Of a stretch of 46,159 nucleotides of DNA, positions 5,189 through 41,985 are shown piece by piece. Location of the stretch: UHGV virus genome UHGV-1375912; one strand, given 5' to 3'. The notes under the pieces were generated by a model. That model did no database searches and was not told where the DNA came from. It was given only the letters and a program-made list of their open reading frames with translations. The DNA comes from a virus. The position numbers and the translations under genes were made by a program. Positions within the stretch are counted from its first letter, which is position 1. Every line of letters begins with the position of its first letter.

Positions 5189-5334
5189 TCCATGACGTCT
5201 TTGATATCAAGCTGGTTCAGCACCTGCTTGCCGCTGAAGTCGAGCAGAGAGACCTCATCTGCTTCGATAATCATCATGCCGGGGCGATATCCGGCGCGCG
5301 TCTTAAGCTCGCCACATTCAATCTTCATTTTCAT
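5140..5334 (-). CDS. Hypothetical small protein. The start is taken at MKMKIECGEL; the long Arg-rich N-terminal extension of the 5140-5700 ORF is rejected.
   Basis: GGGAGAGAAG RBS before the ATG at 5334. ATGA overlap with the upstream ORF. Confidence 0.4.
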   Translation of the reverse strand: MKMKIECGELKTRAGYRPGMMIIEADEVSLLDFSGKQVLNQLDIKDVMEWLTEQGYTIHQEHAA

Positions 5335-5513
5335 TTCTTCTCTCCCAGCCCGAGGCTTCTGAGCATCAGGTTGATGAAGGTGAAATCCTTCGAGTTCTCC
5401 AGCATCTTGCGCTGGCGCTCTAACTCTTCCTGCTGCTTCTGGTAAGGCAGGGTGGGTGATTGAGTCTTCACGGTTTGCCCTCCTGCGATACGACCTGTAA
5501 CAGGCGCTCCCAA
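5331..5513 (-). CDS. Possible small ORF. The start codon is uncertain (TTG at 5513).
   Basis: It fills the gap between neighbouring ORFs but has no clear RBS. Confidence 0.2.
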   Translation of the reverse strand: MGAPVTGRIAGGQTVKTQSPTLPYQKQQEELERQRKMLENSKDFTFINLMLRSLGLGEKK

Positions 5514-6900: not shown

Positions 6901-7178
6901 CAGATTTCGGTAAATGTTTGCTTGCTGATCCCTTTAGGGTTGAGCAGCCAGAATCGAAGCGCTCCTTTTTGGTCCCCCGAGCGCTTGAGATAGCGAATGA
7001 AGTCAATCCGCTCGGTTCTGGTGCCGGATAATGGATAGCTGTACTCAGCCATTTACTGGTGCTTTTTCACGAGCCTTCTGATTAATCTGTCGCTTCATTT
7101 GGGAAACCATTCGCTTTGCCATGGCCCGGTCTTCGCAAAGCTCAAAAGCAATCCTGTACATCTCTTTGTCACTCATAT

Positions 7179-18393: not shown

Positions 18394-18524
18394 CCGAATA
18401 CCTCAGAGAGAAGTGGCTACGTCTTCGCATTCTAAAGATGCGCGGCATGTACGAGATCAGCTACCGGATAATCCGGAACACGGCGAAGATGATGGGGGTG
18501 ACCAATGCCAGTGCGCGAGCTTAA
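18390..18524 (+). CDS. Small 44-aa basic ORF (MTEYLREKWLRLRILKMRGMYEISYRIIRNTAKMMGVTNASARA).
   Basis: ATGA overlap with the upstream ORF. It fills the gap before the Q-like gene. Confidence 0.3.
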   Translation: MTEYLREKWLRLRILKMRGMYEISYRIIRNTAKMMGVTNASARA

Positions 18525-18993
18525 CCTTACTAAAGAGCAGCACGACTGGCTGAATAACTGGCTGGAGCTTTGGGGTGCGTGGGTTTACTCAGGAAGGCTG
18601 GAAAAGCGCCAGAGCAGTGTCATAGCGCAATACATGGCGACTGTTGAGCCGCAATCCTATCCATACCGGCCAATGTGCAATGATGATGACGGACTCTTGA
18701 TTTCTCAGGTCGTGGACTCCGTCATGTTCATCGATAAAAAAGCATTTGGCATCCTGCTCAGCTACTACGCTCACGGCTCTTCTAAGCGAGCCATTGCATC
18801 CTACTATCATAAGGTCGCAAGTCCCCGCAAAATGTCAGGGCGCGGCGGAGAAAGTACCAGGCGACCATCAATGATTACCTGCCGACGTGAAGTGGACGAA
18901 ATACTTAATGCCAGCCTCTATCTTCTCTATACTCCGCTGCTATCTGCATTTAACGATCGCAAACGTGTAGTTAAAATTAGAAAAGTCGCATAG
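18505..18993 (+). CDS. Putative late-gene antiterminator (Q-like, Q21/Q82-type size).
   Basis: 162 aa in the Q position, immediately upstream of a PR'-like promoter, a short leader and a strong terminator, followed by the lysis genes. Confidence 0.45.
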   Translation: MPVRELNLTKEQHDWLNNWLELWGAWVYSGRLEKRQSSVIAQYMATVEPQSYPYRPMCNDDDGLLISQVVDSVMFIDKKAFGILLSYYAHGSSKRAIASYYHKVASPRKMSGRGGESTRRPSMITCRREVDEILNASLYLLYTPLLSAFNDRKRVVKIRKVA

Positions 18994-32708: not shown

Positions 32709-33146
32709 ATGCTGATTCTAAAAACCCCAAAACTGGATGCCAATTCAGAGCGCTGGATTACGCCTATGGAAGGCCTGAAGCTAAAGGTCGGCTCTATCAG
32801 CAACCCGGCATTCCGATCGCATAACGCAATCGTGCGCCGGCACATCGACAAGCTGGACGCCCGCTTTAAGGTAGGAACGCCAGATTTCAACCCAGCAGAA
32901 ATTGACGTAACTGAAATCTCCGATGACCTCCTGATTGATTCAGTTGCAAAGCATCTGCTGATTGACTGGGAGGGCGTAGGGACTGCAGATGAAAGTGGTG
33001 CAGAGAATCCAATTCCGTACACACCTGAAAGCGGCAAGGCACTTCTGCTGCAGCATCCTGAACTGTACTGGGCGGTGCTAAGTACTGCGTCCGACATTGC
33101 GGCGGGAAAAGAAGAGCAGAAGAAAGAAACAGTGGGAAAGTCTTAG
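32709..33146 (+). CDS. Tail assembly chaperone (gpG-like).
   Basis: Lies between the major tail and tape measure genes and contains the slippery site. A 7-bp hairpin (32672-32692) precedes it. Confidence 0.6.
   Translation: MLILKTPKLDANSERWITPMEGLKLKVGSISNPAFRSHNAIVRRHIDKLDARFKVGTPDFNPAEIDVTEISDDLLIDSVAKHLLIDWEGVGTADESGAENPIPYTPESGKALLLQHPELYWAVLSTASDIAAGKEEQKKETVGKS
33104..33110 (+). other. Programmed -1 ribosomal frameshift site G_GGA_AAA producing the G-T fusion (extension to 33472).
   Basis: X_XXY_YYZ heptamer in the G frame. The -1 frame is open from here to 33472 and equals the listed 33179-33472 ORF frame. Confidence 0.6.
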
Positions 33147-33178: not shown

Positions 33179-33472
33179 GTGCAGGGCGAGAAAGCCCGCT
33201 GGAAGCGGGAGAGGTTAGGACTCCCGCCCATACCAGAGCCTGAAATCGATGGTGTATGCACGGAAATACTCAACGCCTACGCGATAATCAGTCGCAGCAG
33301 GCGATATGCGGGGGTGGCTGCTGCGCCGCTTCCCCTTTCACTGGAAGACATCAACTCGTACCTTAGCCATGAGCCACTGCTTATCGATCGAGATGAGTTC
33401 GATGCCGCTATATTCGCACTCGATGACGCAGCGCGCGATGAGTGGGAAAGAAAGCAAGAGAAAGGTAAATAA
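33179..33472 (+). CDS. T-portion of the tail assembly chaperone, expressed only as a GT fusion via the -1 frameshift.
   Basis: It is in the -1 frame relative to G and has only a GTG start of its own. Confidence 0.5.
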   Translation: MQGEKARWKRERLGLPPIPEPEIDGVCTEILNAYAIISRSRRYAGVAAAPLPLSLEDINSYLSHEPLLIDRDEFDAAIFALDDAARDEWERKQEKGK

Positions 33473-33473
33473 C

Positions 33474-33671
33474 ATGAAACAAGAGAATGGGCGTGTTGTG
33501 ATGGAAGCATCAATGAATATTGGTGTGCAGAATAAATCTGCTGAAGACAGAATTTCTGAACTTGAACAAAAAGTGAATGATTTGGCGATCCAAATAAGCA
33601 GCCTGTGCTCATCCCATCAGGCTGCCATTGCACAGATTCAGACGGTCATTTCAGAGCGACCTCAAGGCTGA
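33474..33671 (+). CDS. Small coiled-coil protein (65 aa, MKQENGRVVMEASMNIG...).
   Basis: ATG 1 nt after the T stop with a GAAAGG RBS. Confidence 0.4.
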   Translation: MKQENGRVVMEASMNIGVQNKSAEDRISELEQKVNDLAIQISSLCSSHQAAIAQIQTVISERPQG

Positions 33672-33725
33672 GAGACCCATTAGCAATGTCTTCAAGCTGA
33701 ACTGTTACTTGAGTGAGAGCTCAAC

Positions 33726-33756
33726 GGGAAAATCCCACTCAGTTGGGTTTTTTGTT
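33726..33756. terminator. Bidirectional terminator CCCA-CTCAGT-TGGG plus T7 (plus strand); U-rich on the minus strand too.
   Basis: It lies between convergent genes (33474-33671 plus, 33739-34362 minus). Confidence 0.5.
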
Positions 33757-34362
33757 GTCGGTTGTATTGTGAGTAAATGCATATTGATGTTGGGAGAAAT
33801 CATTATCCCACCTCTTATCATGCTTGCTTGCAACGAATTTCACCATCTCCTGCATTAGTACGCTAAAAATAAGGCAAAGTTTCAGCCTGTTTTGCGAGCC
33901 ATCGGAGTTCAAAGTAACGGTTGTGACTTCATCGCCATGCTGGTCATTAACAGTTACATATCGCTTTGAAAGTGTTGCCTCCGATGAAAGCCGTAGGTGA
34001 TTATCCGTTTTTTCAGCAAAGCTCTGTATGCGAGAATCTGGAATTGAGTGTTTGGCGGGGTTATGAGCTATGTCGTTTCGTAAAGAATTAAGAACCTTGA
34101 AAGCCTTCCCTAAATTTTCAGGAAGACCAAGATTTATAGCCATCTCAATTTTTGCACTGCACTCAACCAGCACGCGATTCTTACCCTCCCCGAATAACCC
34201 AGGGTTATTGCAACATGCGCAAATCCACGACTCGATGAGGCGCTCGCTGAGAAGGTGTAGTCTGAGGGTGGTGCCAACATCATCGTCAATAGTTGCAGCC
34301 TTTAAAAACAAGTCATTGACATCAATAGCCGTGTAATAATCCATAAAAACGCGTGCGTCCAT
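33739..34362 (-). CDS. HEPN-motif protein (putative RNase / Abi-like toxin), 207 aa. Low-GC moron on the opposite strand to the tail operon.
   Basis: Rx4H signature in LNSLRNDIAHNPAKH. AAGGAG RBS. About 38% GC. Opposite orientation inside the structural operon. Confidence 0.55.
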   Translation of the reverse strand: MDARVFMDYYTAIDVNDLFLKAATIDDDVGTTLRLHLLSERLIESWICACCNNPGLFGEGKNRVLVECSAKIEMAINLGLPENLGKAFKVLNSLRNDIAHNPAKHSIPDSRIQSFAEKTDNHLRLSSEATLSKRYVTVNDQHGDEVTTVTLNSDGSQNRLKLCLIFSVLMQEMVKFVASKHDKRWDNDFSQHQYAFTHNTTDNKKPN

Positions 34363-34382
34363 TCCATCTCCTTGAGGTTTAT

Positions 34383-34601
34383 ATGGCGAATTTAACTGAA
34401 ACGTTGATCATCTTTATTAAAGATGACGGCATATCGCTTCAGACGTTGGATGGCCAGTCAGCCGGTTACTGGCCGAATGGCAATATCCGCGTCTTTGCCG
34501 GTCACAACAGGCAGGCATTCCCCGTTCGTGTAGTGCTCCATGATGTGCGCCCATGCCCCAAACATGGACGGGCTGAGCACTCAACATATCCTCTAAAGTA
34601 A
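34383..34601 (+). CDS. Possible 72-aa ORF in the divergent promoter region. Doubtful.
   Basis: AGGT RBS, but it overlaps the region where the HEPN gene promoter must lie. Confidence 0.2.
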   Translation: MANLTETLIIFIKDDGISLQTLDGQSAGYWPNGNIRVFAGHNRQAFPVRVVLHDVRPCPKHGRAEHSTYPLK

Positions 34602-34702
34602 ATGAGAGGAATCCTGATAGATGATCAGTGCTTATGTTTTGCATTGTCTTGCGCTGCCGCCGTGATAAGATTTATCCCATAAAACCTCATGGGGATAGGG
34701 AT

Positions 34703-35053
34703 ATGAAAGCGGTTGGGATAGTAATTTTAATTTTAGGGATGATTGGTGCTGTGGCATCAATGGTTATGGATGTATCAGTTGCTACTTCTGGTGGAATGAG
34801 AGTTAACAATATTGGTTTAATGGCGGATAGACAAAACTATCTAATAATTAGCGGGTTTATAGCTATTGCTGGATTGCTTTTGGCTCTTTTTGGTGATCGA
34901 GTCAATTTCAAATCTAGTGAGAATAATCATGACATTACCGAGCCAGATCCAAACGCCAGCAGACTTGAAGGCGTACCGGTTAAGATGGGTTTAATAATCT
35001 TCGTTATCTGCTTTGCATTCGTAATCGGTTCAATTTTAATTTTTAGAGTTTAA
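34703..35053 (+). CDS. Small multi-TM membrane protein (116 aa, about 3 TM). Moron partner of the HEPN gene.
   Basis: Hydrophobic segments IVILILGMIGAVASMVM, LIISGFIAIAGLLLALF, GLIIFVICFAFVIGSILIF. AT-rich. Own terminator. Confidence 0.55.
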   Translation: MKAVGIVILILGMIGAVASMVMDVSVATSGGMRVNNIGLMADRQNYLIISGFIAIAGLLLALFGDRVNFKSSENNHDITEPDPNASRLEGVPVKMGLIIFVICFAFVIGSILIFRV

Positions 35054-35069
35054 CCACACAAACTCATGA

Positions 35070-35095
35070 AACCTCGCTTTAGCGGGGTTTTTTTA
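35070..35095 (+). terminator. Terminator CCTCGC-TTTA-GCGGGG plus T7 immediately before the tape measure start.
   Basis: GC stem followed by TTTTTTTATG. Confidence 0.55.
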
Positions 35096-35109
35096 TGCCC
35101 GGAGAAAAC

Positions 35110-37716
35110 ATGGCCGAACAACAATCACGCCTTGCGATCGTCATCGACAGCACAGGCGCTCAGCGCAATGCAGAAGGTCTGGCTGGCGCACTGGCTAAGA
35201 TGACTCAAGCCGGGCAGAAGGCCGCAGATACCGCAGGCAAAACGGCAAAGGCGACGGATCAGGAGGCTAAGTCTTTAGCTGACCTGCTGGACAGGATTGA
35301 TCCTGTTAATGCCGCGCTTAACCGCCTGGACGATCAGCAGCGACAATTAACAAAGTTTCAGGCCAAAGGCTTCATCGACTCAGACACCTTCAGCGATTAT
35401 TCAAAGAAAATTGACGAAACTCGCTCTCGCCTCAGTGGGTACGACGAACAATTAAAAAAGACTGGCATGACGTCGAAACAGATGGCCAACAACTTAAGGA
35501 TGGTTCCCGCTCAGTTTACAGACATTATTGTTAGCCTTCAGGCGGGGCAGAATCCATTCCAGGTGCTGCTCCAGCAGGGGGGTCAGCTAAAAGATATGTT
35601 TGGCGGTATCGGTCCGGCAGCAAAAGCGCTGGGCACATATGTCGCCGGTTTGGTTAACCCATTCACGGTTGCGGCCGCCGCTGCAGGCTTGCTGACTTAT
35701 GCGCTCTACCGAAACCAGCAGGAGTTAGCCGAAGCCAGTAAGTTAGTAGAATCTTCGCTTGGAGCGAGTGGCGAGGCTGCTGAAAGGCTGGCTCTCAATA
35801 TCATTTCGATTTCTGACAAGTCAGGAAAGGCTGTAGATGAAGTTGCCGCTATGTTCATCAGCACCAATGACGGTGCCAGCGAGGCAATCAGCAAGCTTAT
35901 CGATGTTGGCTATGCCTACGATGAAGCTCGCAAACTCGTCGAGTCTTATAAGGGCTCAGCTAATTTTACAGCTTTGAATAAGGATATAGATGAGCATCAG
36001 CGCAAGGTTCTCAAGCTCGGAGATGCTTGGACATCTGCCGCGATAGATGTAAAAAACTATTACACTGGAGCAAATCAGGGTAAACAGAATGTAGCATTAG
36101 GCGGCGCTATTGACCCATCCATGCGGTTCATTGATCAAGCCATTGAGCTTCAAAAGACAATGAACGCCCTGCGGATTGAGGGGAATAAAGAGGTTGCTGA
36201 GTCAGTTGGATGGATTAATAAGGAGTATCTCGCCACTGACCGAGTCGCTGGCGCAGAAGACCGCCTTAATCAAGCCAGAAAGCAAGCAAAAAGAATCGCC
36301 TTTTCAGGTGATAAAGAAGCAATCGAGAACGCCAATAAGCTGATACAGGCTCGCGAAAAGGAAGTAGAAGAGGCAAAAAAATCCAGAGACAAGCAGCCAA
36401 AAGAAAAAGCTTACTCGGAAGATGCCGGTACTCGGCTGCTTGACCAATTACGCCAGCAACAGCAGGTGCTATTAAGTCAGGCAGACACAGGAGAGAAGAT
36501 TGGCACGCAGCAACAGGCGCTGATTAAGTGGGAGCAGCAGCTTGCCGATATTAAGAGCAAGCAGACGCTTACCGCTGACCAGAAATCGCTGCTAGCCAGT
36601 GCCGATCTCATCACCTCTCAGCTGCAGCAGAACGCAGCACTTGAACGGCAGATAGAGACTCGAGAGAAGTTGCTGGCGCTGGACAAAGCTCGCGCTAACA
36701 TCACCAGAACCATCACAAACCGGCAGAGCCAGTATGCCACAGACGAGCTCTTCGCTGGCGGCGGCCTGAGTCAGAACGAGCAGCAGCAGTACACGCAGCG
36801 ACTTTCCCTAGAGCAGTCCTACAACGACAAAATCAGTCAACTTCGCCAGCAAAGGGCGTCCGCAACGACTGAGATTGCCCGCGAAGAGATTGACCAGGAA
36901 ATCCAGCTGCAGCAGCAGGCACTGCAAACGGAACTGAGCAACTACGACACCCATATCCAGCGCATGAACGAAGCCCGCGGCTCTTTTACCGCTGGCGCGA
37001 CTCGCGCATGGAAGGAGTATCAGGATAGCGCTGCGAACGTTTCTGCGATGTCTCAGCAGTTGTTCAGTAATGCTTTCGGGAACATGGAAGACGCGCTTGT
37101 TAAGTTTGCCACCACCGGCAAGGCTTCCTTTTCTGACTTCGCAAACTCAGTGCTTTCAGACATTGCGCGCATTGCCATTCGCCAGTCGCTTATTGGTATC
37201 GGCACAAGCTTTGCCGGGATGGCGGGAGGAATGTTTGGTGGCGCTGCTGCAGCTTCGTCCGGAGCAGCAGCGGCTTCTTCCGCATCATCAAGCAATGCCT
37301 TCTCCAGTGGGGCATACAGCAATCTCAAGCTTAACGCGAAGGGTGGCGTATACGATTCTCCATCCCTGAGCACTTATAGCGGTGGCGTGTATGACTCACC
37401 GAAATTCTTTGCCTTCGCTAAGGGGGCCGGTGTGTTTGGAGAGGCAGGGCCTGAAGCAATTATGCCGTTAACACGTTCATCAGACGGTTCACTGGGTGTA
37501 AGGATGGTAAATGGCGGCCAGGCTGATGCTAAGAGTGCTGGTAACACGGTTATTCACCAGACTATCCAGGTGAATGGTAATGGTGATGCAGCACTGAAGC
37601 AGGCAATGGAAGAAGCTGCGCGAAGAGGTGCTACTGATGGCGCGAAACAGGCCCGACAGGACATGCTGCAGGACTTCCAGAACAGAGGGCAGGGCCGTCG
37701 ACTGCTGGGCGTATAA
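35110..37716 (+). CDS. Tail tape measure protein.
   Basis: 868 aa, alpha-helical and Q/A-rich with a C-terminal Gly/Ala/Ser-rich region. Position after the G/GT gene. Confidence 0.85.
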   Translation: MAEQQSRLAIVIDSTGAQRNAEGLAGALAKMTQAGQKAADTAGKTAKATDQEAKSLADLLDRIDPVNAALNRLDDQQRQLTKFQAKGFIDSDTFSDYSKKIDETRSRLSGYDEQLKKTGMTSKQMANNLRMVPAQFTDIIVSLQAGQNPFQVLLQQGGQLKDMFGGIGPAAKALGTYVAGLVNPFTVAAAAAGLLTYALYRNQQELAEASKLVESSLGASGEAAERLALNIISISDKSGKAVDEVAAMFISTNDGASEAISKLIDVGYAYDEARKLVESYKGSANFTALNKDIDEHQRKVLKLGDAWTSAAIDVKNYYTGANQGKQNVALGGAIDPSMRFIDQAIELQKTMNALRIEGNKEVAESVGWINKEYLATDRVAGAEDRLNQARKQAKRIAFSGDKEAIENANKLIQAREKEVEEAKKSRDKQPKEKAYSEDAGTRLLDQLRQQQQVLLSQADTGEKIGTQQQALIKWEQQLADIKSKQTLTADQKSLLASADLITSQLQQNAALERQIETREKLLALDKARANITRTITNRQSQYATDELFAGGGLSQNEQQQYTQRLSLEQSYNDKISQLRQQRASATTEIAREEIDQEIQLQQQALQTELSNYDTHIQRMNEARGSFTAGATRAWKEYQDSAANVSAMSQQLFSNAFGNMEDALVKFATTGKASFSDFANSVLSDIARIAIRQSLIGIGTSFAGMAGGMFGGAAAASSGAAAASSASSSNAFSSGAYSNLKLNAKGGVYDSPSLSTYSGGVYDSPKFFAFAKGAGVFGEAGPEAIMPLTRSSDGSLGVRMVNGGQADAKSAGNTVIHQTIQVNGNGDAALKQAMEEAARRGATDGAKQARQDMLQDFQNRGQGRRLLGV

Positions 37717-38914: not shown

Positions 38915-39313
38915 ATGAAGCACCCTGACTGGCAGAAGAGGCTTGTAACTGTAATTAAGGCCGCCGAGAAGCGGCCTTTTTCATGGGGAGAGCATGACTG
39001 CTGCCTGTTTGCCGCCGATTGCGCGCAGGCAATGTGTGGCGAAGATTTTGCCGCTGAATTCCGCGGGAAGTATGACAGCGAAACCGGAGCGAAAAAGGCG
39101 CTGCTGCGTGGCGGCGGTTCACTTGAGCGTGTTCTCTCACGCTTTCTTGAAGAGGTGAGTCCGGCATTTATACAGCGTGGAGATATCGCTGTGGTCGAGA
39201 ACGCCGGGCGCAGGTGCGCAGGGGTTTTTTATAGTGGCGCGGTATGGGTTCCGGGCGATTCAGGCCTGGTTGGATTACGCGGAAATGTATTGAGTGCATG
39301 GAGGGTTAACTGA
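38915..39313 (+). CDS. NlpC/P60-like tail-associated cell-wall peptidase (gpK-like).
   Basis: 132 aa with the conserved Cys/His region GEHDCCLFAADC...H. Position before the J-like gene. Confidence 0.45.
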   Translation: MKHPDWQKRLVTVIKAAEKRPFSWGEHDCCLFAADCAQAMCGEDFAAEFRGKYDSETGAKKALLRGGGSLERVLSRFLEEVSPAFIQRGDIAVVENAGRRCAGVFYSGAVWVPGDSGLVGLRGNVLSAWRVN

Positions 39314-41985
39314 TGCCTGCTGCTATTCCAATCGTTGCGGCTGTGGCCGGTGGTATTGCCGTTGCTAACCAGGCTTACGCCATCGCAATGGTAATCACCG
39401 TGGCCGCTCAGCTTGCCTCTCAGGCTCTGGCGAAAAAGCCCTCCATGGGTGGTTACCGGGACACCCAGGAGAGGAAGCAGGTTCTTCGCGCCGCTGCCAG
39501 TGCCAAAACAGTTATCTATGGCAAAACTCTTTCGGCCGGCACGCTCTTCTTTTCGGAAGAGCAGGAGGGTGACCAAACTGATGGAGAGCTGCTACACCTG
39601 GCCATTACACTCGCCGGCCATCCAATTACCGGCGTTGGCGCCGTTTACCTTGGCGACGATGACATTTCGACCTACGGCAGCAAGGCCTCTTATGAGGTGC
39701 ATATTGATCGCCAGATAGCAGATCCTTATCTGCTGGCAAATGCACCTTCATGGAAGGAGGACATGATTGGTAAGGGCATTAGCTGGCTTAGGGTGACGCT
39801 TCAGTTTGATGCGGAAAAATTCCCCTCTGGCATTCCCAATATTACCGTTGAGAAGCTTGGTCGAAAGGTGTATGACCCACGCACGGGCCAGACGCTTTAC
39901 AGCAACAATGCCGCTCTGTGCATCCTCGACTATTACCGCAACTACCTCAAGGTTCCTGACTCTGACATCAACTGGGATCAGTTCAAGGAAGCAGCGAACA
40001 TTTCAGACGAAAGGGTTACCAGTACCGGCAATCTGACCGAGCTTCGTTACACCATAAATGGTGAGTTCGACCTGAGCGAGAATAAGGCAAGCATCCTTGA
40101 ATCAATGCTTTCTGCATGCTCTGGAGAGGCTACTTATATAGCGGGCAAGCATGGCATTCTGGTTGGTGCTTATTACGGGCCAGCGACAGAAGAGATCACT
40201 GAAAGTCAGCTGGCGGGCGATATTGAAATCATGCCCGAGGTATCTCAGTCTGAGCGTGTGAATACTATCAAAGGCACCTTCACTGACCCGGAACAGCGAT
40301 TTGCAGAGGTGGATTTCCCTACCGTCTCTGTATCCGAATGGGTAGCTGAGGATGGCGTTGAGATTTCTCAGGACCTCAAGCTTCGCTTTGTGACCTCCGA
40401 ATTTCAGGCTCAGCGGCTGGCTGACATTAAGCTAAAGCGTACTCGCATATCCCGGACCATGAACGTTACGCTAAACCTGAGCGGATACCGTTATCGACCG
40501 GGAATGTATGTGAAGGTTAACTTTCCTTCGCTGGGGATTATCGGCGTTGAGATGCGTGTAACGGACTGGAGATTCGGCGTTCAGAATGGCGTACAACTCA
40601 CACTCAAGCAGGAAACAGCCGGGGTGTGGGGTGACGCAATTGGGCAGCCTATCGATCGCCCTCCATTCACGCAATTGCCAACTGGCGGGGTGGCTCAGCC
40701 ACAGAACCTGAAATACACCGTTGAAGAAATCGGTCAGGTAGTTCAGGGGGTGCTTTCATGGCAGAACGTGGGTCAGTATGTTTATAACCAGGTCCTTATC
40801 AGGAAAGACGGACAGCTGGTTTTATCGGTGCAGGTTCCTGGCTCATTTACCCGCCTCACCGGACTACTGCGAGACACGTACACAGCGCATGTCATAGCGG
40901 TTAACCAGATGGGCGCCCAGTCTCCTGAGGCATATCTTGAATTCAGTATCGAAGCGCCACCACCACCTTCTGCTGTGGATCAGAAGCAGGGTTATTTTTC
41001 TGTAACTCTCATCCCTCGCATCAATGAGATAACCAACGTCTCAACACAGTTCGACTTCTGGACTTCAGGCCTGACTCAGCTACCTAATGCCAACCAGTCC
41101 ACGGTGGAAGGCAATGCAAGTCGTGCCGGCATCGGAAGTAACTGGACAGCTTACGAACTGAAAATTGGCCCTACGTATTACTGGTATGTGAGGACAATAA
41201 ACGCCTTTGGAACCTCTGCGTTCGTTGAGGTGCCGGTTGTATGCAATACGGATACTGGTGAACTGATTGACTACATCGATAATCAGATCCGCAAGTCAGA
41301 AGCATTTGACCGGCTCACTTCATCCATTGATACGAGTGTTGATGCAATCCTGCAGAACGCCCTTAACCTTGATGCGTCTGTGGATCATCAGTTTGAGGCT
41401 TACGGTCGAAACCGAGCCGACATCATTACTGTCCGTCAGACCATTGCCACCAATGACAGCGCCTATGCTCAGAAATTTGAGCAGATTCAGGCCCAGTCAG
41501 ACCAGAACACTGCGTCAGTGCAACAGGTATCAAGTGCATACGCTGACCTTAGCGGCAAGCTTTCTGCTCAGTGGGGCGTGAAGGTGCAGATTGACAGGAA
41601 TGGGACTAAATATGTCGCTGGCATGCAGCTTGGGGTGGAAGGCAACGGCGGGTCCACTCAATCATTTGCACTCTTTAGCGCAGATACATTCGCAATCTAC
41701 AACACAAGTACCCTTGGCTATCAACTGGCGTTCACCGCAGTTAATGGTCAGGTGTTCATTAATGACGCGCTTATCAACTATGCCTCGATAACGCTTGCCA
41801 AAGTGGGATCATGGTACTCCGCAAACTATGTGGCTGGCAGGTCAGGAACAATTATGAGGGCTGATGGTTCTTTTGAATTATATGGAGGCTCAGGACGTTC
41901 CGGCGGAAGTGTGTTTAACGAGACAGGAATGGCTGTTTATGATGCCAATGGCGTGGAGAGATTTAAGGCGGGAAAACTAAACTGA
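39313..41985 (+). CDS. Host-specificity protein (lambda J-like central tail fibre / tip protein).
   Basis: Segments collinear with lambda J: YYWYVRTINAFGTSAFVEV versus [21 protein letters not shown], and AQWGVKVQIDRNGTKYVAGMQLGVE versus [25 protein letters not shown]. Confidence 0.75.
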   Translation: MPAAIPIVAAVAGGIAVANQAYAIAMVITVAAQLASQALAKKPSMGGYRDTQERKQVLRAAASAKTVIYGKTLSAGTLFFSEEQEGDQTDGELLHLAITLAGHPITGVGAVYLGDDDISTYGSKASYEVHIDRQIADPYLLANAPSWKEDMIGKGISWLRVTLQFDAEKFPSGIPNITVEKLGRKVYDPRTGQTLYSNNAALCILDYYRNYLKVPDSDINWDQFKEAANISDERVTSTGNLTELRYTINGEFDLSENKASILESMLSACSGEATYIAGKHGILVGAYYGPATEEITESQLAGDIEIMPEVSQSERVNTIKGTFTDPEQRFAEVDFPTVSVSEWVAEDGVEISQDLKLRFVTSEFQAQRLADIKLKRTRISRTMNVTLNLSGYRYRPGMYVKVNFPSLGIIGVEMRVTDWRFGVQNGVQLTLKQETAGVWGDAIGQPIDRPPFTQLPTGGVAQPQNLKYTVEEIGQVVQGVLSWQNVGQYVYNQVLIRKDGQLVLSVQVPGSFTRLTGLLRDTYTAHVIAVNQMGAQSPEAYLEFSIEAPPPPSAVDQKQGYFSVTLIPRINEITNVSTQFDFWTSGLTQLPNANQSTVEGNASRAGIGSNWTAYELKIGPTYYWYVRTINAFGTSAFVEVPVVCNTDTGELIDYIDNQIRKSEAFDRLTSSIDTSVDAILQNALNLDASVDHQFEAYGRNRADIITVRQTIATNDSAYAQKFEQIQAQSDQNTASVQQVSSAYADLSGKLSAQWGVKVQIDRNGTKYVAGMQLGVEGNGGSTQSFALFSADTFAIYNTSTLGYQLAFTAVNGQVFINDALINYASITLAKVGSWYSANYVAGRSGTIMRADGSFELYGGSGRSGGSVFNETGMAVYDANGVERFKAGKLN

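Follow-up and report, generated by a model that had tools for sequence, protein, structure and literature searches.

The window analyzed here (the whole 46,159-nucleotide [nt] stretch of UHGV virus genome UHGV-1375912) is a complete lambdoid prophage of Pantoea type with a siphovirus tail module, in which a low-GC block (33474-35095) separates the tail-assembly chaperone from the tape-measure gene. Sequence comparisons make it very probable that this block is a mosaic of separately acquired modules and not one system, and that its 207-amino-acid (aa) HEPN protein is a member of the family of HepS, an abortive-infection nuclease of Salmonella prophage Gifsy-1. Next to the HEPN gene, on the opposite strand, lies a small conserved gene that an earlier reading of this DNA had missed, and the two form a mobile cassette found again in seven or more phage lineages, those of phi80, DH5alpha, and Nissle among them. 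The best overall explanation, which we hold to be probable, is that the cassette encodes a HepS-family defense nuclease together with a small protein that may be its off-switch. The system had been thought undescribed; the nuclease is instead a new member of a described family, and what is new is the conserved small divergent gene and the antisense placement within a late operon, which constitute an undescribed variant. The features of the cassette are as follows (coordinates throughout are those of the window):

33734-34549 (816 bp): mobile cassette (HEPN gene plus conserved core of the small gene)
33739-34362, minus strand: 207-aa HepS-family protein with a single HEPN domain, a predicted latent RNase
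34063-34080, minus strand: HEPN Rx4H motif RNDIAH (codons 95-100)
34363-34382 (20 bp): spacer between the divergent starts, with back-to-back Shine-Dalgarno sequences (CTCCTTGAGG on the plus strand, CCTCAAGGAG on the minus strand)
34383-34601, plus strand: 72-aa small protein (phrog_20632, E 5e-15), with 20 bp between its start codon and that of the oppositely oriented HEPN gene

The HEPN protein and its relationship to HepS

A preliminary description of this DNA had reported a minus-strand open reading frame (ORF) of 207 aa with the sequence SLRNDIAHN and an AAGGAG ribosome-binding site, and had considered its product to be of HEPN type. The ORF is present as described (AAGGAG lies 5 nt before the ATG), and the all-alpha HEPN fold of the protein and its conserved catalytic motif both support the assignment. 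The anticipated HEPN/Abi_2/DUF4145-like match was obtained only in part: scanned alone against Pfam, NCBIfam, and PADLOC, the 207-aa protein gives no significant match, but its relatives show scattered subthreshold matches to the HEPN families Abi_2, RiboL-PSP, Cthe2314, and DUF4145, and the family profile matches HepS. More specifically, a profile of close relatives matches one solved protein, HepS of Gifsy-1 (STM14_3211; PDB 9oij/9oik), at E 1.9e-5. An exhaustive profile search returned 246 clusters at the 50%-identity level, nearly all of them stand-alone proteins of 170-215 aa, and a profile built from 133 family members recovers HepS with an hmmsearch E of 1.1e-18 (profile positions 8-175 on HepS 16-189) and with an hhalign value of 98.1%. 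The link to HepS depends on this family profile, the window protein alone being too distant.

In the alignment, RNDIAH (codons 95-100) falls on HepS R100-H105 (RNKYAH). An Rx4H motif by itself is trivial; here, near-invariance across 153 family proteins lifts it above chance (R95 is kept in 150 of the 153, and N96 and H100 in 152 each, the opposite of the lack of conservation in homologues that would have refuted the earlier reading), and E40, H36, and K71 are nearly invariant as well. Because of the profile matches to HepS and the near-invariant motif, the HEPN assignment is solid, and profile comparison likewise places the 207-aa protein firmly in the HepS family in the broad sense. The family loci are phage contigs, and the family is essentially prophage-borne.

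HepS, whose family was published in January 2026, is a single-protein abortive-infection system: it forms an inactive tetramer to which the siphovirus tail-tip protein J binds directly, whereupon tRNA anticodon loops are cleaved (PMC13043305). HepS alone is nontoxic and needs a phage trigger, and it is described as "solo," that is, as lacking a partner gene; its authors list 393 homologues (PMC13043305). Like HepS, the 207-aa protein stands alone, is shorter than 250 aa, has a single HEPN domain, and is encoded by a prophage; identity between the two is only 15-18%. Unlike the solo HepS, the subfamily found in the window has a conserved divergent gene of 65-72 aa (in seven lineages) and sits antisense in late/tail operons. 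HepS loci for this comparison were taken from IMG/VR (a tblastn search of the phage collection with a HepS fragment gave no match), and in these loci HepS is codirectional with its neighbors and has no such small gene alongside.

The divergent small gene and the distribution of the cassette

The stretch of ~340 bp beyond the HEPN start, previously taken for an intergenic region, holds the conserved small gene. Its product matches phrog_20632 and has homologues in seven lineages, among them PHI80_64 of phi80, and substitutions between the window and phi80 copies fall at codon positions 1, 2, and 3 in the proportions 17/11/32; because between-lineage substitutions are mostly in third positions, the small gene is a real coding gene, and for all these reasons the stretch cannot be called intergenic. 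In tblastn searches, 30 of 37 close loci have a homologue of the small protein directly upstream of their HEPN homologue, and a Salmonella lambda-like prophage also has one beside the HEPN gene; every contig returned by an IMG/VR pattern search for the small protein carries the HEPN gene too. The dependence is asymmetric: the small gene was never seen without the HEPN gene, whereas one lineage (loci L034 and L036-L040) has a HEPN gene, again at the chaperone/tape-measure junction, but no small gene. Locus L033 has an intact HEPN homologue beside what is left of the small gene, a truncated copy at 6914-7033 (ending in MELFLGDEGIAPIRR and a stop codon), suggesting that the nuclease may be kept after the small gene has decayed.

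The arrangement of the two starts is itself conserved, with a spacing of 20-22 bp and an invariant GGAG in eight lineages (the window, phi80, Pantoea/Rahnella, the L005 group, the L016/L042 group, L031, L032, and Salmonella L090). In the window and in L001, L003, L005, L016, L031, L032, and L042, the spacer is near-palindromic (CCTCnAGGAG), and both strands obtain a Shine-Dalgarno sequence from it; the two mRNAs would have complementary 5′ leaders, or the palindrome could be an operator. At its other end, the small gene of the window differs from the cassette proper, in that its last 18 codons (34544-34601, DVRPCPKHGRAEHSTYPLK) are supplied by the adjoining moron leader. The identical fused 72-aa form is also present on a 123-kb contig bearing a HEPN copy named for Pantoea brenneri (P0170). 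The small protein has no match in Pfam or NCBIfam, and a low-confidence model (pLDDT 60) shows an all-beta core of 60 aa with no DNA-binding signature. The idea that it mimics the J trigger peptide was rejected, as a profile search at maximum sensitivity against the J proteins of lambda, the window, and Salmonella gave no match in the trigger region.

Cassettes occupy different sites in different phages: the chaperone/tape-measure junction in the window, the tube/chaperone junction in Pantoea locus L003 and the L005 group, the L/K interval of the tail genes in a Salmonella prophage with sodC, and the interval between rha and cos in phi80. Four loci (L003, L009, L010, and L015) carry cassette DNA that is 85-90% identical to that of the window, at other sites of the tail operon. 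Orientation, by comparison, is fixed: across the phage loci that we examined, a long run of late/structural genes has a single gene, the HEPN gene, on the opposite strand, and the small gene is codirectional with the late operon. The phi80 genes PHI80_63 and PHI80_64, annotated as "hypothetical protein" and "putative Fur-regulated protein," are homologues of the two cassette genes (49.5% and about 50% identity, respectively) and are likewise divergent and antisense to late transcription, despite lying between rha and cos and not, as in the window, in the tail operon. This phi80 pair (L001, 961-1786) is present at 99.8-100% identity in 80 of 5,426 complete Escherichia coli genomes, including those of DH5alpha, DH10B, and Nissle 1917.

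Some islands that hold the cassette also hold regulatory genes. At the tube/chaperone junction of Pantoea loci L003 and L004, the HEPN cassette is accompanied by a Phd/Fic toxin-antitoxin pair, an S24 repressor, and Bro-N/Rha antirepressors, and at that of L005 by Arc-type repressors and Bro-N/ANT antirepressors; these islands are immunity-like regions amid structural genes.

A possible switch between lysogeny and lysis

We regard a phage-triggered defense role for the nuclease cassette as reasonably probable on sequence grounds: such a role is plausible because the closest characterized homologue, HepS, is a prophage abortive-infection nuclease (PMC13043305). The preliminary description had likewise proposed a defense or superinfection-exclusion cassette, and this part of it remains plausible for the HEPN gene; its further premise of one system made up of the HEPN and membrane proteins does not hold (see below). 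In the lysogen, the HEPN gene would probably be transcribed, in the direction opposite to that of the late genes, and its product probably forms an oligomer that stays inactive until bound by a structural protein from an infecting, induced, or coresident siphovirus. Once triggered, the protein would cut RNA through RNxxAH (the targets of HepS being tRNA anticodon loops), thereby aborting the infection. The small protein would be made only when the prophage's Q-dependent late transcript passes through the cassette, and the same transcript would be antisense to the HEPN gene; small protein and antisense RNA together would silence the nuclease while the prophage itself grows lytically, much as the Tha/Ith system of Staphylococcus aureus phages does. 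The homology, fold, motif, cassette limits, gene orientation, and co-occurrence are direct results; the trigger, the RNA target, the inhibitory action of the small protein, and the role of the membrane protein are proposals. Four lines of evidence lead us to infer this scheme: the fixed orientation, the asymmetric dependence, the residue found in the window's own J protein, and the Tha/Ith precedent (PMC11087260).

With respect to J, Gifsy escapes self-targeting by means of a silent variant that has I at position 924 (PMC13043305). The J homologue of the window (39313-41985) keeps NGQVFIND (residues about 812-819), an F924/Q922-type motif with F at the position of lambda J F924. The window prophage thus has F where Gifsy has I, and HepS responds to this type of residue; a nuclease of similar specificity would run a real risk of being triggered by the prophage's own J.

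Two observations on J from other prophages may be recorded here. In a cassette-bearing Salmonella prophage (L091), J has I at the corresponding position (GGQIIMNE), like the silent J of Gifsy. In L047 (about 5306-5471), and in the same form in L052, a 55-aa ORF right after gpT in the chaperone/tape-measure gap contains FTVENGQVFINEALIRGDAIKAAAI, which matches window J 807-831 (56% across 25 aa; E 2e-5 with three sequences searched). This part of J is the equivalent of the lambda J peptide that triggers HepS, and the ORF could encode a J-fragment miniprotein, perhaps a decoy.

Tha is a prophage HEPN RNase activated by tail proteins, and Ith, encoded on the opposite strand and about 66 aa in length, inhibits it during the prophage's own lytic cycle, with antisense transcription toggling between the two states (Tha-1/Ith-1 of phage 80alpha; PMC11087260). 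Both the architecture and the inferred logic match the window cassette, which also combines a HEPN gene with a small gene on the opposite strand. The differences are, however, considerable: Tha-1 has 301 aa, with an N-terminal domain preceding its C-terminal HEPN domain, versus 207 aa for the window protein; and ith and tha are convergent (tail to tail), overlap at their 3′ ends, and lie in the lysogeny module of 80alpha, whereas the window pair is head to head, with 5′ ends 20 bp apart, in a late operon. Homology was rejected, the hhalign probability being 0.1% for both protein pairs, and the relation is one of analogy, not membership. Inhibition has been demonstrated for Ith and is here proposed by analogy for the small protein, which may be an inhibitor of the HEPN nuclease, a suggestion we offer with some reserve. 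More tentative again is the full form of this proposal, namely, that the phrog_20632 protein would be a dedicated inhibitor of a HepS-family nuclease, made only from the late transcript, that the layout would act as a lysogeny/lysis switch, and that the Tha/Ith principle would have arisen independently in a Gram-negative setting; such a protein could also serve as an anti-HepS counterdefense.

If this were true, a siphovirus prophage could carry a tail-sensing suicide nuclease without having a silent tail protein. The HepS prophage is described as escaping self-killing only by its mutated tail tip, and a sizeable branch of the family travels with the small gene; the conservation of that gene and its fixed orientation relative to the late operon point to a second, regulatory route past autoimmunity that resembles Tha/Ith. 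The occurrence of the pair in phi80, DH5alpha, DH10B, and Nissle 1917 makes the idea easily testable, and a cassette active in those strains could affect phage work done in them.

Several considerations weigh against a nuclease held in check by its small neighbor. The co-occurrence counts are drawn from related contigs and are not independent samples. No convincing promoter for either cassette gene was found in a consensus scan of the block, and with start codons only 20 bp apart, each promoter would need to sit inside the other gene. Given the low identity to HepS, the trigger and the RNA target may both differ from those of HepS, and the regulatory model cannot be carried over from HepS, which has no partner gene and is not antisense. 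As for the small protein, it has no detectable similarity to Ith-1, its structure is predicted at low confidence, and in the window its C terminus has been exchanged by recombination, so that the protein might be impaired there.

Other explanations were weighed on the same evidence. Were the small protein a cosensor or adaptor that activates the nuclease, or the transcription factor of the nuclease gene, the tight linkage of the genes would be accounted for, the palindrome-like spacer (CCTCnAGGAG) could be the operator, and it is true that no sequence feature marks the small protein as an inhibitor. On the other side, the HEPN gene serves as a stand-alone gene in some lineages, as does HepS; the small gene is, moreover, always aligned with late transcription, which fits a product wanted in lysis and not in lysogeny, when defense is needed, and the predicted all-beta core (pLDDT 60), without a DNA-binding signature, speaks against a transcription factor. 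We consider this explanation unlikely. A toxin-antitoxin addiction module that stabilizes the prophage in place of sensing phages is an improbable reading: the genes are divergent and not cotranscribed, several phage lineages keep the HEPN gene with no small gene beside it (a state incompatible with a constitutively active toxin), and the homologue HepS is nontoxic by itself and requires a phage trigger (PMC13043305). HEPN-MNT and other type II toxin-antitoxin systems were rejected as candidates on account of the divergent genes and the lack of a Pfam or NCBIfam match for the small protein.

The preliminary description had instead paired the HEPN protein with the 116-aa membrane protein encoded downstream, as a two-gene defense or exclusion system. 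The two genes are neighbors in the window and both are low in GC, and the membrane protein weakly matches effector models with two transmembrane segments (PADLOC PDLC00689, E 0.0016; SLATT_4, E 0.18). A homologue of it is nevertheless absent from all of about 40 loci with HEPN homologues, its homologues in Pantoea allii and in a metagenome occupy the same junction with no HEPN gene, and the two genes lie on separate recombination modules joined at 34544-34549, with a third gene intervening; the real conserved neighbor is the small soluble protein, and the pairing is, in our judgment, very improbable. Slighter still are the chances that the 207-aa protein is a noncatalytic HEPN-fold regulator like MtlR/YggD, with no nuclease or defense role, given that RNxxAH, E40, H36, and K71 are nearly invariant across the family, that HepS scores higher in an alignment covering more residues, and that the family is essentially prophage-borne. 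A HepS-family defense nuclease whose small partner may act as an off-switch is the explanation that we retain.

Mosaic structure of the island and the membrane-protein module

The remaining features of the island, with its flanks and two further genes of the prophage, are as follows:

61-1224: integrase gene
18505-18993: Q antiterminator (PF06530)
32712-33146 and 33179-33472, plus strand: left flank, tail-assembly chaperone G and T part, the latter in the -1 frame relative to G
33474-33671, plus strand: 65-aa ORF, coiled-coil-like, starting 2 nt past the T stop codon
33711-33756: weak hairpin followed by a T6 run on the plus strand (fold z -0.93 on the plus strand, -1.05 on the minus strand)
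34544-34702, plus strand: conserved moron leader with a candidate promoter and ribosome-binding site (the conserved stretch runs to 34707, up to the cargo ATG)
34703-35053, plus strand: 116-aa protein with hydrophobic segments at residues ~1-28, 44-67, and 87-116 (from hydropathy)
35068-35094, plus strand: intrinsic-terminator-like hairpin and U-run (stem 35068-35091, 10 bp, U7, -13.4 kcal/mol, z -3.6)
35095-37716, plus strand: right flank, tape-measure protein (TMP_2, TMP_4, Tape_meas_lam_C; PF06791, PF24622, PF09718)

The prophage also encodes a CI-like repressor, NinG, lysis genes, and Rha. Its island had been described as an AT-rich moron block of ~1.6 kb inserted between the chaperone (G/GT) and tape-measure genes, and our results agree with this and with horizontal acquisition. 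The flanking genes are confirmed by their matches (phrog_313 at E 1.2e-34 and phrog_1189 at E 4.3e-32 for chaperone G/T, and the Pfam families listed for the tape measure), and GC content runs at 0.38-0.46 across 33450-35100 versus about 0.55-0.59 in tail genes (mean 0.430 over 33474-35095; the late genes upstream average 0.557 and the tape-measure gene 0.523). No close DNA match to the region was returned by megablast against the phage collection or against E. coli genomes.

The mosaic has three parts: 33474 to about 33733, with the 65-aa ORF and the weak hairpin; 33734-34549, the HEPN/small-gene cassette (module A); and 34544-35094, with the leader, the membrane protein, and the terminator (module B). 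The recombination joint at 34544-34549 falls within the small gene and splits the HEPN cassette from the membrane-protein module, and in a comparison with locus L043, window positions 33506-34544 stand in place of 511 bp. The 65-aa ORF that opens the block, which the preliminary description did not mention, gives weak coiled-coil-type matches only; no homologue was found in the HEPN loci or in 44 relatives that share T. Relatives have other small ORFs in this position, with a similar N-terminal beta-like segment and heptad region. The bidirectional terminator formerly placed at 33726-33756 is not upheld: the fold is weak, about like that of shuffled sequence, the minus strand has no T-run, and the scan did not detect it. 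A second terminator, said to abut the tape-measure ATG, is real, in that the hairpin of module B has a stable fold and ends at that ATG; homology with relatives resumes from 35059/35070. Rfam matches in the block were all subthreshold and lay on the terminator hairpin, and the consensus promoter/terminator scan was uninformative (no terminators and one promoter-like site, fewer than expected by chance). Read-through of the terminator under the control of Q, which had also been proposed, is plausible because the window encodes a Q antiterminator.

Module B would be an ordinary moron. Its 116-aa product, whose three hydrophobic segments agree with the three transmembrane helices predicted earlier, has only 3 homologues among 5.8 billion proteins, matches phrog_8032 over its N-terminal 72 aa, and is carried as cargo by a moron of its own, independently of the HEPN cassette; two of its homologues (those of Pantoea allii and of a metagenome) are located at the same junction in related prophages without the cassette. 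Its most likely role is at the membrane of the lysogen, for example, in superinfection exclusion. In the two prophages with these homologues (L088 and L089), an HNH/NUMOD4 homing-endonuclease-like gene, which the window lacks, lies antisense just upstream of the tail tube gene (772-1374 and 921-1448, respectively).

The leader of module B is 92-100% identical in at least eight relatives (L043, L044, L046-L049, L052, and L076) and is more conserved than the flanking T and tape-measure genes, which are only 72-88% identical; its last 42 bp recur in L045, L050, and L053, upstream of unrelated cargo ORFs. A promoter candidate in the leader (TTGTCT-N16-TAAGAT, with TG ahead of it) was recognized by eye only; the scan made no call there. 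We surveyed the junction in 44 related phages that share the T part, 4 of whose loci end before the tape-measure gene. The gaps between T and the tape-measure gene, which in the window is 1,622 bp, are distributed as follows:

31-64 bp: 17 phages
about 0.5-0.7 kb: 8 phages
about 1-1.9 kb: 13 phages
about 3.4-3.6 kb: 2 phages

The block is thus extra DNA of deviant GC content (0.43 versus 0.55) between genes that are nearly adjacent in 17 relatives, as expected of a moron in the sense of Juhala and Hendrix. A comparison of the junction across relatives, suggested earlier as a check, shows that the gap extends from 31 bp to 3.6 kb with varied cargo; among the cargo are lipoproteins, an FtsK-gamma-like protein, membrane and zinc-ribbon proteins, and antirepressor modules.

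Such a location is not unusual, because the first "moron," gene 15 of HK97, was defined at this very junction, where its product, the membrane protein gp15, gives superinfection exclusion (PMC3594210). HK97 gene 15 likewise encodes a small membrane protein, deviates in GC content, and has a terminator T-run abutting the tape-measure ATG; it differs in the length of its product (62 aa versus the 116 aa and three transmembrane segments of the window protein), and the window gap additionally contains the HEPN cassette and the 65-aa ORF. The 116-aa protein was rejected as a homologue of the HK97 gp15/YebO family, BLASTP producing no alignment. With a conserved leader and terminator enclosing unrelated cargo, the chaperone/tape-measure junction looks, from these sequences, like a cassette-exchange site and, as such, would be a useful place to mine prophages for accessory genes.

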